Below are positions 21,801 to 33,800 of a DNA stretch of 64,000 bases, in pieces. The position numbers are program-made. How positions within the stretch are numbered: the first letter of the stretch is position 1; each line of letters starts with the position of its first letter. The stretch comes from Gemmatimonadales bacterium (GTDB lineage: Bacteria; Gemmatimonadota; Gemmatimonadetes; Gemmatimonadales; GWC2-71-9): positions 224,001 to 288,000 of the forward strand of contig JBBCJC010000005.1 in NCBI GenBank assembly GCA_037189525.1, in the 5' to 3' direction.

Positions 21801-24800
21801 TGCCGATAACGCAACGTACCCGGCTACGAGCACCAGAACGGCCATCGCCAAAACGACAACGTTCCGTCGCCCCAACAGGCTCCGGCGATTCTGTGGTGCT
21901 GCATCCGTTTGCGGCATAAGGTGATGAGGATATTCCGATCGCTACGTCCGGTCAAGCGTTGGAGCCGTTTCCTCGTCGCCAATTGAAACATCCCACCCGA
22001 TATCGAGCGCGGCGCGACGGGGGCGGTCCCTCCGCCGACGCCACCAGTACCCGAACACCAGCAACCCGCCGACCACCGACCAAATCCCGCCCGCCGCCAG
22101 CCACAGGCCCCAATTGTACCGACGGCGAACATCCCGCTGCCAGCCCTCGTCGAACCGATCCCGGGTGTAGCCGGCCGTCCGCACCACGGCGGAATCGAAC
22201 GGAACGCCCTGCGCCAGCTGGCCGAGCAGCGGTGCGAGCGTGCCGTCGCGGCTGCCGCGCGCCAGAAAGGCGACCGCACTCGCCGCCAGCGCGTAGGCCG
22301 TCTCCGCTTCATGCCGGTTGCCGCGCAGCGAATTGTTGAGCTCGCCGAGTGACGGCACCGCCCCGCGCATCACACCCAGATTGAGGGCCAGACGATCGAA
22401 CCGATCGAACTCCCCGGCGGCCAGCACCGCGTACCCTTCGTCGAACCAGAGCGGCACCCGGCCCCGGATCGATTGCCGCAGCGCAAAGTGCGCCAGTTCG
22501 TGCCGCAGGACCCGGACGGGATCGTCGCCGCCGTCGGCGCGCACCGCAATCAGCCGCGCACCCGGCAGCGCCAGCCCGACCCCCCAGCGCGGCACCTGCC
22601 CCCGCCCGGCCCGATGAAAGGCCGCTTCACCGCGCACGACCACCAGCGAGAGGGGGGTGACCGTGACGCGCCCCAAGCCATACCAGTCGCTCGGCCGGTC
22701 GGCGATTTCCGCGAGGGCCACGGCAAGATCGAGATCCCTGGCCTGGGCAATCGCCGTGACCTGGCCGACGGTGACGGCACTGGCCTCCGCGCCGACGAGA
22801 TCGCCGGCCAGCGACGAGAGACGGCTGCTGCGTTCGAGTGGCGGTGCTTGCTGCGCGAGTGTTGGAAGCGCCGTCAGGACGAGGCAGGCGGCGAGGAGCG
22901 CGGCACCGATTCGCCTCGCTCGACGGCTTCCAGCAGTTCCTGACATCGTTTGGCCCATGGCGCAAACCGATTGGCGTTGGCCCCCTTATGCCAGACGGCC
23001 TTAGCCCCCGCATGGTCTCCGGCAAACCACTTGGCCCGCCCGAGATCGTAGTAGGCTTCGATCAGATTGGGACCGAGCTGGATGGCTTTCTCGAAGAAGG
23101 TCTGCGCATCGAGATCCATTTCCCGCTCGAGGTACACCAGGCCCAGGTAATAGTGGGCGTAGAGTACCGCCTTCCGATCGTTGTCGAGGCGGATGGCCCG
23201 GGAGAGATGCTCGATGGCCTCCCCGAAGATCCGCTTCTTGAGACAAATGTAACCGACATTGACCCGGGCCAGTGCATTGGTGGGCTCCTCCGCGAGGACC
23301 CGCGAAAAGGCCGCCAGCGCCTCGTCGAACTTGTGGCCCAGCATCTGGGCCCAGCCCAGCAGCGAGGCGGCCTGCAGATCGCCCGGCGCCAGCTCGAGCG
23401 CCCGGGTCAGCGCTTGCTCGGCAGCGGCGTGGTCGCCCAGCGCGATCAGCGACCAGCCCTTCTCGATGAAGGTCGACGCGCCGAGATGATCGGCTCGGAC
23501 CAGCGGCCGCCGCTCGACCATCTGGGGGTCGCGGGTGGTCTCGGCCGTTCCCTGCTTGTAGCTCTCGACCAGGCCCTTGATCCGCTCCCGGAGCGACTCG
23601 AAGTGGTTGAGCGCCGCTTCGGTTTCCTTGTAGATGGCCACGATCCGACGCTTGATCTGCTCCCGCACCACGGGCGTCGCCGCCTGCCCGACCTGGGCTT
23701 CCAGCGCGGCAATTTCCCGCTCGATCGGCCCCGCCGCGCGCTCCGTCACAGCACCTGTCCCGACCGGTTGTAGGATGTGATCGTGATTCGGCCACTGGCC
23801 AGGTCGAAATCGGCGGTCCGCCCGAAATCGCCCCCGACGGCTTCACCGACCAGGCGAATGCCCAACCGATGCAGCACCTCGCGCGCCGCGACCACGTTGC
23901 GATCGCCCATTTGAATTGACCCTGGCGGCGTCAGGGAGACAAACATGCTGGCACCGCCGACCAGGCGCGCCGTGATGGTCGGTGCCCGAGCCCCCCGCGC
24001 AATCATCCGCTCCAGCAGTTCGGGCGCCGCCGTCTGCGCATAGCGTCCGGGTTGGCCGGTTACCCGGCCCATGGCCTGCGAGGGCAGCAGCGCATGGGCG
24101 AGCCCGCCGATCCGGGTCGTCGCATCGTGCAGCACGATAGCTACGCAGCTGCCGAGCGCCACCGCCACCAGCCGGGCCGGCGCGTCGGTCACCAGCAGTT
24201 CCCCGACCCGAACGACGAGACGCGGCGTCGTCATCGGACCCTCCGGTAGATCCGCTCGCGGCGGTCGACCGGCTCGAGCCGTGGCGCCACGGCCCACGCC
24301 GCCAGTTCGGCCTTGCCCAGCACCAGCAGCCCGCCCGGACGGAGCGCATCCACCAGCCCCGTCAGGATCCGTTCCTGCGCAGCTTCGGTGAAATAGATCA
24401 GCACGTTGCGGCACAGGATCAGATCGCAGCCGGTCCGTTCACCGGGCCGGGTCAGGTCCGCCTGGCGGAATCGGATCGCCTCGCGCCAGATGGCTGGCAT
24501 GACCAGGCCGTCCGGCTCGACCGTCAGCGGCGCATCGGGGACCATACTCGCGAGAGCGGCCCGCATCCTGACCGGATAGCGGCCCGGCACCGCCACCGCG
24601 AGCGAGCGGGCGTCGAGATCGGTGGCGTCGATCTGCCAGGCTCCCGGTTGGGGCCGCTGCCGCCAGAGGAGCGCAGCGAGCGACCAGGCTTCCTCACCAG
24701 TTGCGCACCCGGCGCTCCACGCCGCGAGCGGCCGACCCGATGGCCAGCTGAGCAGCGGACCCAGCGCGGACCAGACCGACGGGTTCCGGAAAAAGCCGGT

Positions 24801-30800: not shown

Positions 30801-33800
30801 CGCGCCGCCGGAATGGCCGCGCCGACCGTTACGACTTTCCGCTCTTCCTCGGAACCTAACGAGGGTAACGCCAGCCACGCTTCAAAGCCATGGACCGCCT
30901 CGTCCAGGCGCCCGGCCCCCATCAGCGCCCATGACAAGAGCCGGAGCGCCTTGGGCGACGCGGGGTCCAATCGCACCGCTTCCCGGAATGCCGTTTCGGC
31001 CTGGGTGTAGCGCCGGTCGGCCAGAAACACGCGGCCTAGCATCACGTGAGTTTCGGCCTCATCGGGAAAGGCGGCGACGGCCGCTTGCGCAATCGAAAGC
31101 GCGGCCTCGGCCTGACGGGCCTGCAACTGGCGTTCGGCCTCCGACAGGAGCGACTGGGCATCGGCGCGCGGCGCGGCCTGAGTGGTTTCCTTGATCGGAT
31201 CGCGCAGCGCGAGCACCCCGGCAGCCGACAGGCCGAAGACGGCCCGGGCCACGTCGAACTCGGGTTCGCTCAGCAGGGTCGCCATTTCCTGGAGATCACG
31301 GGTCCCGTCGGCCACGGTGAGGACGCGCCATTCGAACGGATTGAGGACCAGGCTGCCCGGCTCCCCTTCCGGCAGGCTGGCAATCCGGGGGATCACACCC
31401 AGATGGGGAACCTTGGCCCGAATCCGGGACCACTCGTCGATCCGGCGCGCGCCTTCGAGCAACAGCGCCTCGACGGAAATCCGGACATCCGCTTCGCGCG
31501 GAATGGTGTCGGGCGCAGCCTCCTCGAAGACGAAATATCCTTCGGACCAGCCGAGCATCGTGAAGACGACTTCCTCGATCTGGGCGCGGACCTGCGAGGC
31601 GAGTTCCTTCGGCGTGATGGCGCCGATCGCGACCAGAATGGCACCGATCCGGCGCTGGTCGCCGCCGGACTGGAGCGCCTGGGCCCGGGTCAGATCTTCG
31701 CTGGCAATCCGCCCCGCCCGCACCAGGTGCTGTCCCAGCATGTGGGGATTCGATCGGACCGACGCGGCCACGATGCCGGCCTCGTGAAACCAGATGGTTC
31801 CCTCGTTGTGGCGCAGATCCGAAACGACCCGGAGACGCCCGGTCTTCTTGCCCAGGTCGAGCAACTGGAAGACGTCGTGGATACCGAGTTCGCGAAGCGG
31901 GCCCTGGATGGCCATCTCAGGCCTCGACCGGCTGGAGGATGTGCATCAGATCGCGGGTCGACCGCGCTTCCGCGCGCGCCGCCGCAGCCAGCGGTCCGGT
32001 CGGATTGCTCCGAATCACCTGCTCCCACTCGTCCAACGCCTCGGCAAACTGACCGAGCGCAGCGAGCGACATACCGCGGTGGAAGCGCGCCGTCGCCTGG
32101 TCGGACACGAACTTGAGGACCCGGGTAAACGCGGTCAGCGCATCACGATGACGGCGTTCGTCGGCCAACGACCGGCCGAGCAGGACCAGGGCATCGGTCG
32201 CGTAGGGCTCGACCAGCAGGAGGTCGACCAGCAGCTTGATGGCTTCGGCCGTTTTGCGCTGCCGGCGGAGCAGTTCTCCGAGAGCAAGTCCGGCGTCCAG
32301 GTAGGTGGGCAGGACCGCGAGGGCTCGTTCGTAGGCAGCCTGCGCCAGGCCGAGTTCGCGGCGCTCTTCGCGCACCAGGCCGCTTTCGAACCAGGCCTGC
32401 ACGTGCCCGGGGTCGAGCGCCACCGCCGCCTGGAGCGAACTCAAGGCTTCGTCGGAATCGCCCAGCTGGCGTCCGATCCGGCCGCGCAGCACCAGCAGAT
32501 CCGCCCGCGCCGGCGCCAGCGCAATGGCGCCGAGCGCATCGTCCTGGGCGCCGTGGAGATCGTTCATGGTGAGACGAGCCCGGGCCCGCAACTCGAGCGG
32601 CTCGGGCTCGCGCGGCCTGAGCCGCACCAGATCGTCGGCCAAGGCACGCGCTTCCTCCGCACGCCCCAACGCGAGCAGCGCTGCCGCTTCACCACGCAGG
32701 ATGGCCGGATCGTCGGGCAGCTCCTGCCGGGCCTGGCGAAAGCGTTCGAGCGCCTCACCATGCAGACCGCGCCGGGCAAAGATCTCTCCCAGGAGCGCGA
32801 TACCCGGCCCGGCAGGCCCGCCGCGCCGCAAGGTGCGATGCACTTCGGCGGCGGCCGACTCGAGCAGCCCCTTGGCAATCAGGTCACGGGCCACGTCGAA
32901 CGGGTCGACCGCAGCCACCGCGGCCGCTTCATCGGGCGCCAGCGCGACGAACAAGTCGTCGAGCACGGCCGGATCGAAGGTGAAGTCTTCACCGACGGCT
33001 TCGAGCGTCACATCGGCCGCGAGGTTCGGAACGATCCCGACTGAGGTCTCGCTGAACTGCAACTCGATCGACAACGCGTATTTCTGGGGAACGTAGAACG
33101 GATCGATCTCCAGCGCGCGGCGGGTTTCCCGCAGCGCTTCGTCGAACGCGCCGAGCTGGCTCAATGCAAAACCGAGATTGTAGTGCGCCGGGGCGCAACT
33201 GGGATCGGACTCCACCGCGCGCCCGAAGGCGTTCCGGGCATCCGGAAAGCGCTTCAACTCCATCAGCACCAGGCCGATGCCGTTCCAGGCAATGGCGTGA
33301 TCCGGATCGGCGGCGAGCACGCCGCGATATCCGTCGAGAGCCGCCTGATAACGCTGCCGGTGAAAGTGGAACAGCGCCAGATTGAGCCGCGCGGCCTGCA
33401 GCCCCCCCTGCGCAGCAATGGCGCGCTCGAACGCGAGCCGGGCCGGTTCCACCTCCTGCTCCGCAGCCAGCAGTACGGCCAGGTTGTTCCAGGCGAGCGC
33501 GGCGTCGGCATCGAGCCGGACCGCTTCTTCGTACGCCGCGCGCGCCTCGGCCCGGCGACCGGCCTGGTGCAGCACCACGCCGCGCTCGTTCCAGAGCTTG
33601 GGATTCTCGGGATCCTGCTCGAGCAGCCGGCGATAGAGTTCGAGCGCTTCGCCGGTGTCCCGCTGCAGCAGGTGAATCTCGGCCATACCTTCGAGCGCCG
33701 GACGTTCGTCCTCTCCGGCTTCGAGCGCCAGACGGTACTCGCGCAACGCTTCGACGAAGTAACCCCGCCGCCGGAATGCCACCGCCAGGTTGAGATGCGC

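Follow-up and report, generated by a model that had tools for sequence, protein, structure and literature searches.

Why should a protein built of two DnaA-type ATPase modules be encoded among chemosensory and cell-polarity genes? The known DnaA-type AAA+ domains (DnaA, Hda, DnaC, IstB) have either DNA or DnaA itself as their target. The 64,000-nt stretch of a Gemmatimonadales genome analyzed here (the window) holds a gene for such a protein, here called the adaptor, on which our literature search found no paper. The core of the first-pass annotation stands: the gene of a non-replicative, DnaA-derived tandem AAA+ protein shares a conserved cluster with the gene of an MglA GTPase and with Roadblock and PATAN (DUF4388) genes. 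Its description of that cluster as ten genes on one strand is right about the strand and short on the number: cheW, cheY, cheA, cheC and the gene of an 887-aa TPR protein add upstream to make 15 (Table 1), spaced by -8 to +45 nt from gene to gene across the run. The mglA stop overlaps the adaptor start, as had been noted, by 4 nt, and the adaptor stop overlaps the start of the following gene, PATAN2, by 1 nt, these two genes being translationally coupled. (The starts of cheY and cheR are our choice.) The gene previously called simply TPR is that, with a weak Roadblock domain besides.

Table 1. Features of the cluster, in positions of the 64,000-nt window
Feature	Position	Strand	Basis or remark
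cheW	37220..37609	-	Pfam CheW, 57.5 bits
cheY, single receiver	36828..37190	-	Pfam Response_reg; best NCBIfam CheY_Halo, below cut-off
cheA (Hpt, dimerization, HATPase, CheW domains)	35249..36817	-	Best NCBIfam CheA_Halo, below cut-off
cheC phosphatase	34583..35203	-	Pfam CheC, two stretches
887-aa TPR protein	31917..34580	-	Position shared by most cluster loci
PATAN1, DUF4388-TPR	30764..31915	-	Weak MshEN-like motif, 31.8 bits, below cut-off 38
TPR + weak Roadblock domain gene	29983..30771	-	Roadblock E 0.00088, below cut-off
Roadblock/LC7 protein	29636..29986	-	Domain search
MglB-like Roadblock protein	29175..29636	-	Domain search
MglA paralogue of cluster type (small GTPase)	28569..29171	-	Groups with WOR-3 copies
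Tandem DnaA-derived AAA+ adaptor, 646 aa, whole gene	26632..28572	-	Pfam, NCBIfam, motifs, model
AAA+ module 1 (residues 3-232)	27877..28566	-	K44, D101/D102, arginine finger R151, sensor II K200
Motif A, acidic amphipathic helix (residues 253-266)	27775..27816	-	Retained in mini-proteins
Helical linker unit (residues 271-362)	27487..27762	-	Sequence and model
AAA+ module 2 (residues 366-600)	26773..27477	-	K411, D467/D468, arginine finger R517, sensor II R566
C-terminal tail motif (residues 626-646; W634-P635 ... R-L-L-x-E)	26632..26697	-	Predicted TPR-docking peptide
PATAN2: DUF4388 with MshEN insert, then TPR array	25016..26632	-	Domain search
MshEN-type c-di-GMP motif of PATAN2 (residues 57-110)	26303..26464	-	NF053729, 62.7 bits against cut-off 38
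PATAN2 TPR groove (residues 285-461), predicted holder of tail and motif A	25250..25780	-	Mapped from G225 orthologues
cheR	24231..25019	-	Domain search
cheD	23746..24234	-	Domain search
291-aa TPR protein	22874..23749	-	Conserved in WOR-3 loci too

Pfam Bac_DnaA matches the 646-aa ORF twice (156.8 bits against a cut-off of 23) and the Walker motifs of both modules are intact (Walker A at residues 38-45 and 405-412, the aspartate pairs of Walker B at 101-102 and 467-468), just as first reported. So are DnaA domains I and IV wanting: DnaA_N and Bac_DnaA_C are missing among the 25 Pfam families matched, neither gives a Pfam match at E<=0.01, and the structure model leaves no room for either; a separate, true dnaA on contig C2 specifies a 475-aa DnaA whose domain IV can be read off its sequence. 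The fold is that of DnaA domain III (PDB 8BV3, 8BTG, 2Z4R, 3R8F; rmsd 2.2-3.0 A over ~235 residues, identity 24-28%), and the two share Walker A/B, the arginine finger and sensor II. Among 120 close relatives the ATP-chemistry residues K44 and K411 are kept by 117 and 120, the arginine fingers R151 and R517 by 110 and 111, and sensor II R566 by all 120. Unlike DnaA, the adaptor has two modules per chain, no domain I or IV, an extra linker and a (predicted) docking tail, is dispensable and linked to signaling, and has the sensor I Asp (E. coli D269) replaced in both modules (A135, A501), although 29 of the 120 relatives have it at module 1.

Might a replication link nonetheless persist, with the ATPase co-polymerizing with DnaA, or inactivating it as Hda does, and so tying polarity signaling to the cell cycle? 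The nearest structures are, after all, DnaA domain III, equivalents of DnaA R281, R285 and R334 are retained, and distant family members are very DnaA-like. We hold this to be very unlikely: domain IV is gone, the equivalents of V211 and D269 are replaced, and the adaptor stays below the cut-offs of both the DnaA initiator model TIGR00362 (248.8 against 343.9 bits) and the Hda model TIGR03420 (108.3 against 194.8 bits). Hda is likewise a DnaA-type AAA+ domain without domain IV; the adaptor, unlike Hda, is tandem, has canonical Walker A/B motifs, is only 19-20% identical to the E. coli protein, and on sequence comparison lacks the N-terminal stretch seen there, the motif with which Hda binds the clamp. 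Moreover, the adaptor profile finds no match in seven single-contig genomes, and the gene can shrink to 60 aa. We lean, if not strongly, toward regarding the 646-aa protein as a DnaA-derived adaptor and no replication factor.

Two AAA+ modules per chain are also the rule in p97/Cdc48, NSF and ClpB; the adaptor differs from these in that its modules are DnaA-type, its 130-residue spacer is flexible in the model (pTM 0.53), and either module can be lost. Assignment to these classical tandem proteins, which stack two rings of the classical clade, was rejected: the modules fit DnaA far better (E 5e-81 against ~1e-14), and the p97 fold matches have rmsd values of 24-31 A, where those to DnaA domain III have 2-3 A. 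The linker unit is found elsewhere as 4-8 tandem repeats preceding a DnaA-type AAA domain, and among 120 other long proteins such a domain is fused to TPR in 74 and to MshEN in 15.

Which member of the cluster does the adaptor serve? The family is as large as first estimated (146 representatives at E<=1e-30), but it is not confined to Gemmatimonadota: a check outside the phylum found it in 61 of 151 genomes of the WOR-3 phylum. It is carried by 122 of 124 genomes of the source bacterium's own family, and 56 genomes of an 80-genome panel have some form of the gene. The supplement of PMC4316618 places GAU_1409 of the cultured species Gemmatimonas aurantiaca in the same MglA-PATAN neighborhood. 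Nor is the whole run kept across Gemmatimonadota: cheB, absent here, usually follows cheD elsewhere, and the 12 loci of family f7 retain of the cluster just the ATPase and DUF4388-TPR genes. Directly after the adaptor comes PATAN2, or a TPR-only homologue, in 87 of 91 loci (55/55 in Gemmatimonadota, 32/36 from distant-linker searches; the four without are L001 and L106-L108). By comparison, mglA is the immediate upstream neighbor in 59 of 93 loci, spanning two phyla, and not adjacent in the other 34, so that the ATPase cannot be called a fixture of an MglA module.

The MglA of the cluster, an MglA-type GTPase (its G-motifs can be read off the sequence) with an adjacent Roadblock MglB, is a paralogue that stands apart in the tree (support 99) from the canonical dnaX-recR-mglBA copy, which is on C3. 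The mglBA arrangement of M. xanthus is also dnaX-recR-linked. One could imagine the ATPase as an obligate component of this MglA system, either an effector or a p97-like remodeler whose two rings (dis)assemble MglA-MglB complexes; the upstream position of mglA, the intact state of both modules in most close relatives, and the p97/Cdc48 fold matches that the tandem layout yields all fit. What makes this decidedly unlikely, apart from the poor rmsd of those matches, is the pattern of losses: none of the 12 f7 carriers has the cluster mglA, nor do four loci with mini-proteins (see below); conversely, mglA stays at five loci with a mini-protein alone, and in genome G286 with neither adaptor nor PATAN2; and Walker A is lost from module 2 in 12/12 f7 loci and from module 1 in 11 WOR-3-type loci.

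With one or both modules dead or deleted in many lineages, the tandem ATPase is itself no fixture. Three loci of family f12 pair one AAA module and the tail with a TPR-only protein. Nine genomes retain just an ORF of 60-86 aa, the mini-protein, consisting of motif A and the tail; these have one or two origins. PATAN2 without ATPase predicted a mini-protein at four loci, and the ORF was present in 4/4; these are the loci that lack mglA. Eight of the nine mini-protein genomes have lost the MshEN insert of PATAN2, in a single event, while G112 retained it. Adaptor and PATAN2 have both been lost from G286 and G272, and none of the 24 panel genomes without an adaptor gene has a full PATAN2.

PATAN2 is, as first annotated, a second DUF4388-TPR protein, but it also bears a c-di-GMP motif above the NCBIfam cut-off; the MshEN region (a tandem RLG-type motif) matches PilF (6F8L) and MshE (5HTL), making PATAN2, to judge by sequence, a probable c-di-GMP-binding TPR scaffold. 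Its PATAN domain with alpha-clip/MshEN insert is shared with PATAN regulators and the pilus ATPases MshE and PilF, from which it differs in being fused to TPR rather than to a receiver or pilus ATPase, and in its coupling to an AAA+ protein of DnaA type. In the proposed complex the PATAN2 TPR groove would hold both the tail and motif A. The complex was modeled on orthologues from genome G225, and the interface then transferred to the PATAN2 of the window: the G225 mini-protein with its PATAN2 scores 0.86, the best of three controls 0.36, and of the calibration pairs 116 of 157 solved and 2 of 215 mismatched ones came up to the mark, counts that are only approximate because our own alignments were used for the complex model. 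Runs share at least 83% of contacts, with partner pLDDT of at least 61. The modeled contacts take in conserved Asn and basic residues of the TPRs (N268 in 49, N374 in 44 and R241 in 46 of 55); conservation in the predicted interface does not exceed that elsewhere in the TPR region (0.49 against 0.47, p=0.32). A further caution on the docking score is that TPR-peptide complexes are frequent among solved structures. The reduction of the adaptor to motif A and tail in nine genomes supports docking as the indispensable function, and on the strength of model and gene loss together we think it likely that this function is the predicted contact with the PATAN2 groove.

What, then, does the pair act on? 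The cluster probably has type IV pili as its output. In cyanobacteria, regulators of the PATAN type bind PilB1 and PilC (10.1101/2021.06.11.447907). All 56 adaptor carriers have PilM, as do 19 of 24 non-carriers; at 75 of 80 panel genomes PilM is near-universal and therefore does not discriminate. In 21 of 37 WOR-3-type loci pilT has mglA as a near neighbor, but since pilT stands in an accB-pilT-accC order in the source genome too, this nearness may be hitch-hiking. In M. xanthus, MglA-GTP works on pili through a TPR protein, and the MglA/MglB-SgmX pathway, like this cluster, combines a small GTPase with Roadblock proteins and TPR scaffolds; here, unlike there, a second MglA paralogue lies in one cluster with che genes, and the portion consulted of PMC7519303, the source for M. 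xanthus, does not mention a DnaA-type protein. Motility as the output we infer.

That the cluster serves flagellar chemotaxis, the ATPase being an accessory, is extremely improbable: 38 of 56 carriers, single-contig genomes among them, have no FliG match (18 do), FliG is found in none of five WOR-3-type genomes (completeness not given), and the source genome has two further cheA-cheB-cheR-MCP clusters, which together outweigh the best matches of CheC, CheD and CheY to Thermotoga or halophile flagellar-type proteins and a fliG ~50 kb away. Less improbable, though still unlikely, is that the same adaptor-PATAN2 pair controls exopolysaccharide, adhesion or biofilm, like the Dif system of M. xanthus, and not the direction of pilus motility. 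The gene content and order are Dif-like (cheA, cheW, cheY, cheC plus cheD, with cheR), and an MCP-cheW-cheY-cheA-cheC order with cheR and cheD resembles the Dif-like clusters of M. xanthus and Geobacter as given in PMC2577667; PATAN2 has its c-di-GMP motif and the source genome ten GGDEF matches; and the pair survives in lineages without the cluster mglA. But Dif-like clusters have, according to that same text, class 44H receptors with two membrane helices. The 15-gene cluster of the window contains no receptor gene and, unlike Dif-like clusters, includes genes for MglA, PATAN proteins and the adaptor; the WOR-3 cluster is headed by a receptor of 1062-1132 aa with no membrane helix evident by eye. 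Polarity, instead, is what MglA, the three Roadblock domains and the two PATAN proteins suggest.

Polar type IV pili being the preferred output, a mechanism can be sketched. The AAA modules would bind ATP and oligomerize through their arginine fingers, as DnaA does, and oligomerization would cluster or release PATAN2 in a nucleotide-dependent manner, possibly under c-di-GMP control through its MshEN motif; we offer this tentatively. Adaptor and PATAN2 would be the scaffold through which an F1-like chemosensory pathway, equipped with an MglA/MglB switch of its own, delivers its output, and would position or activate type IV pili at a cell pole, a proposal whose chances we put at slightly less than even. 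Bolder, and rather doubtful, is the notion that on more than one occasion the DnaA AAA+ domain was exapted for signaling, away from DNA, as a polymer. Such a helical filament, driven by ATP, would gather a c-di-GMP-sensing TPR scaffold at a pole and connect type IV pili with a chemosensory kinase and a second MglA switch. If so, the relatives that carry fusions to MshEN, TPR or linker repeats (labeled Sumerlaeota, Hydrogenedentota and, in one case, Thermoplasmata) would be further members of an unrecognized class of initiator-clade signaling ATPases.

The locus suggests that a replication enzyme has been reused for signaling; if the family has indeed moved out of DNA metabolism into a pathway of chemosensing and polarity, the DnaA clade has a wider range of roles. 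Nature's own deletions leave a pair of short peptides and a single TPR domain as the core of the problem, and the adaptor cluster becomes a candidate for the control of surface behavior in a common, little-studied bacterial phylum.

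The first-pass annotation had described a tandem DnaA-type ATPase, devoid of a DNA-binding domain, within a ten-gene MglA operon. The protein is as described: it has two AAA+ modules (module 1, residues 3-232, and module 2, residues 366-600), the Pfam scan matches Bac_DnaA in two stretches and finds neither DnaA_N nor Bac_DnaA_C, and a separate 475-aa DnaA is encoded on another contig of the genome (C2). Its surroundings are not: the same-strand run comprises 15 genes (cheW, cheY, cheA, cheC, an 887-aa TPR protein, PATAN1, a TPR-Roadblock protein, a Roadblock protein, MglB, MglA, the ATPase, PATAN2, cheR, cheD and a 291-aa TPR protein; PATAN1 and PATAN2 are DUF4388-TPR proteins), neighbouring genes being spaced by -8 to +45 nt. 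It is a putative operon as judged by gene spacing; a scan for promoters and terminators gave 2 and 5 sites, not above shuffled sequences. The reported observation on the ATPase and its cluster stands with corrections.

Is the ATPase simply a DnaA or an Hda? It is a member of neither of these families, nor of the classical tandem AAA+ proteins. It falls under the cut-offs of the NCBIfam models for DnaA (248.8 bits vs 343.9) and Hda (108.3 bits vs 194.8), and its modules share 24-28% identity with DnaA and 19-20% with Hda, against 21% with one another. The top fold matches of its AlphaFold2 model (pLDDT 90; pTM only 0.53, with flexible stretches at residues 237-252 and about 600-625) are DnaA domain III, at 2.2-2.4 Å, whereas the tandem AAA+ protein p97 matches at rmsd >24 Å. 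In alignment with E. coli DnaA and Hda (both from NC_000913.3), DnaA K178 corresponds to K44 in module 1 and K411 in module 2, D235-D236 to D101-102 and D467-468, R285 to R151 and R517, and R334 to K200 and R566; the sensor I residue D269 is Ala in both modules. Among 120 aligned sequences (the query and 119 of 120 listed matches), K44 is kept in 117, K411 in 120, R151 in 110, R517 in 111 and R566 in 120; position 200 is Arg in 81 and Lys in 36.

Features of the ATPase locus and of related loci (window coordinates unless a locus or contig is named)
Feature	Location	Strand	Remark
ATPase ORF, 646 aa	26632-28572	-	two Bac_DnaA stretches (Pfam)
Peptidase-MA gene	21942-22958		after the cluster in most Gemmatimonadota loci
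tRNA-Val	21553-21627		beyond the peptidase-MA gene
574-aa TPR-like protein	19755-21479		beyond tRNA-Val
tRNA-Asp	19624-19698		beyond the 574-aa protein
pilT-family gene	G000 (window's genome), C3:453698-456551		between accB and accC; likewise in WOR-3-type loci L002 and L011
Chemoreceptor heading WOR-3 cluster	L089:11393-14581; L090:12480-15833; L091:8463-11861; L092:2766-5969		
Short head-to-tail repeats, ~15 nt	L019:10488-10592 (genome G112)		between mini-ORF and PATAN2
Second ATPase copies, two WOR-3-phylum genomes	L106:7348-9177; L107:7775-9598		module 1 and linker in frame into another P-loop domain, ABC ATPase-like by eye

Past tRNA-Asp come what look like rsmH and a gene for a penicillin-binding protein. 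The cluster MglA is a second paralogue: a quick tree sets 37 Gemmatimonadota and 14 WOR-3-type copies apart from eight copies of the dnaX-recR-mglBA locus (support 99). PATAN2, the product of the gene directly downstream of the ATPase, carries an MshEN c-di-GMP motif that exceeds the cut-off and resembles MshE and PilF structures.

The ATPase had also been called a fixed part of an MglA module, and the whole run said to be kept in other Gemmatimonadota. Neither claim survives: the cluster mglA lies immediately upstream in just 59 of 93 loci, while PATAN2 or a TPR-only homologue follows in 87 of 91. Fifty-eight Gemmatimonadota loci were fetched around the ATPase gene, the cluster mglA or PATAN2; two contain no member (L065, L117), and one ends too early to show the downstream gene (L067). 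In all 55 scored, the next gene encodes PATAN2 (52) or the TPR-only homologue (3). The distant searches contributed 37 loci, one at a contig edge, and PATAN2 is next in 32 of 36, the misses being L001 and three second copies. In one Gemmatimonadota family (f7) all 12 loci read rluD-ATPase-PATAN2-peptidase, with neither the cluster che genes nor mglA; most relatives' loci have cheB and cheW added after cheD. A panel of 80 of 300 genomes, hand-picked to span families and apparent absences (hence non-random, with kin not independent), holds 56 carriers, 42 by profile and 14 with reduced forms on inspection. A full PATAN2 occurs in none of its 24 non-carriers (20 have no match, 3 generic TPR matches and 1 PATAN1 only). 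(A technical note: the PATAN2 of genome G082 stands outside the tally, mini-ORF detection is limited to sites near mglA or PATAN2, and the tallies include the unpublished genomes G055, G154, G179 and G095, four genomes on which none of the conclusions depends.)

How much of the ATPase is dispensable? The module 2 Walker A is gone in 12 of 12 f7 loci, and 11 WOR-3-type loci have lost that of module 1; about 15 loci carry a deletion of module 2. In five genomes (G225, G034, G045, G165, G112) all that is left between mglA and PATAN2 is an ORF for about 70 aa, a mini-protein made up of the acidic helix (motif A, residues 253-266 of the window's ATPase) and the tail (residues 626-646). For four further genomes with PATAN2 and no ATPase the mini-protein was predicted beforehand: all four carry an ORF of 60-86 aa in which both motifs are present, and mglA is absent from all four loci. 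Across an alignment of 54 sequences the tail Trp never varies, and the E-F-x-x-F of motif A is at least 90% conserved. On the PATAN2 tree the mini state needs two changes, and a single origin is possible; the accompanying loss of the MshEN insert counts as one event because the 8 losers form one clade. Separately, the ATPase is read as two ORFs in three genomes (L027, L028 and L041), where a stop codon or frameshift falls in module 1 or close to it, either natural fission or assembly error.

The G225 mini-protein was modelled with its own PATAN2 rather than as the window's pair, from alignments of our making. The complex scores 0.86, against 0.36 for the highest of three controls; 116 of 157 solved pairs and 2 of 215 mismatched ones reach the mark. 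Contacts agree between runs to at least 83%, and partner pLDDT is at least 61. In the model, mini-protein residues 53-71 (tail) and 16-26 (motif A) contact TPR residues 230-408 of PATAN2, which map to residues 285-461 of the window's PATAN2 and include Asn and basic residues that are conserved; overall, conservation of the interface does not exceed that of the region around it (p=0.32). The model supports binding of the mini-protein to the PATAN2 TPR, and resemblance to solved TPR-peptide complexes may contribute to its score.

Presence of the ATPase across 301 genomes of the phylum was counted by hand as a match at E<1e-40 (in genomes with a single match, presumably their DnaA, it lay at about 1e-22 to 1e-36): 122/124 in the window's family, 54/71 in f2, 3/3 in f3, 7/48 in f7, 0/23 in f6 and 0/17 in other classes. 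Its named close matches are Gemmatimonadales or Gemmatimonadota. A search with the linker unit (helical; residues 271-362 in the window's ATPase) as found in five distant members yielded 17 loci, nine titled WOR-3 or TA06, with mglA directly upstream in 16; the linker profile matches 61 of 151 genomes of the WOR-3 phylum. Three WOR-3-type genomes have the front half of the cluster at another site, in the order MCP-cheW-cheY-cheA-cheC-TPR-PATAN; a fourth contig stops after cheA. The leading chemoreceptor (1062-1132 aa) is apparently soluble, with two apparent signalling regions and, by eye, a C-terminal domain like a peptide solute-binding protein. WOR-3-type loci also occur in records titled Acetofilamentum, Bacteroidales and Proteobacteria (L008, L006, L016); these labels may be wrong, and the L008 MglA falls within the WOR-3 group.

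Modules 1 and 2 each cluster within Gemmatimonadota (support 99) in a quick tree whose deeper branches, where descent from DnaA would be placed, are weak; three other proteins (P0205, P0221, P0253) are apparent independent duplications near E. coli DnaA. Tandem DnaA-type proteins elsewhere include P0205, which retains a C-terminal domain IV, and P0214, with an added receiver domain. The linker unit has no convincing Pfam family and no usable match in the ESM Atlas; its best structural match (VIA, Z 6.2), from a single-sequence model of pLDDT 70, is to generic helical bundles, and novelty of fold is not implied.

Among the long relatives listed for an MshEN-AAA fusion, the best 120 comprise 74 TPR-AAA proteins, 15 MshEN-AAA, 22 in which 4-8 linker repeats precede a DnaA-type AAA domain, and 9 with AAA only. 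Their source names include Sumerlaeota and Hydrogenedentota (several of the 74 among them) and one Thermoplasmata archaeon; they need not be orthologues of the ATPase. The 22 linker-repeat proteins (P0282-P0298, P0302, P0305-P0307, P0315, P0355; about 1080-1650 aa) have a well conserved, bacterial-type DnaA AAA domain and frequent zinc ribbons. The Thermoplasmata archaeon label belongs to one cluster member; in archaea a DnaA-type domain would be unexpected. An alignment of the N-terminus of these proteins to the PATAN start is in register and insignificant (probability 0.2, E 0.27), and was not counted as a fusion. Others (P0178, P0195, P0273-P0278 and more) combine MshEN with a single DnaA-type AAA domain or a pair of them, and reach 2000 aa with long helical repeats.

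The only paper found on MglA in a Gemmatimonad (PMC4316618) gives G. aurantiaca GAU_1409 as PATAN>MglA>-PATAN>, the gene between unlabelled; as noted earlier, a search of its main text does not return "DnaA". Literature on MglA, polarity, TPR and DUF4388, mostly in journals open without subscription, yielded no description of a tandem DnaA-type ATPase family. Dif-like clusters have been defined (PMC2577667); the chemosensory and second-MglA cluster around the ATPase is undescribed.

What might the cluster act upon? FliG turns up in 18 of the panel's 56 carriers, in 3 of its 24 non-carriers and in none of five WOR-3-type genomes. All 56 carriers have PilM; of the 37 distant loci, 21 have pilT close to mglA, and one lineage has pilMNOQ there. 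PATAN regulators bind PilB1 and PilC (10.1101/2021.06.11.447907), and MglA-GTP works via the TPR protein SgmX (PMC7519303). A pilus output of the cluster may be proposed mostly by analogy with these two cases, because PilM is also in 19 of 24 non-carriers and the pilT adjacency, downgraded as evidence, is found as accB-pilT-accC in the window's genome too. On the input side, MCPs are absent from 14 of 42 profile carriers. Since MCP-less f7 loci are without the cluster che genes, and genome G037 without cheR, cheD and cheB at the locus, the ATPase-PATAN2 pair outlives chemosensory input. On the best reading, the ATPase is an adaptor derived from DnaA that serves the PATAN2 TPR scaffold and whose nucleotide-binding oligomer module is optional.
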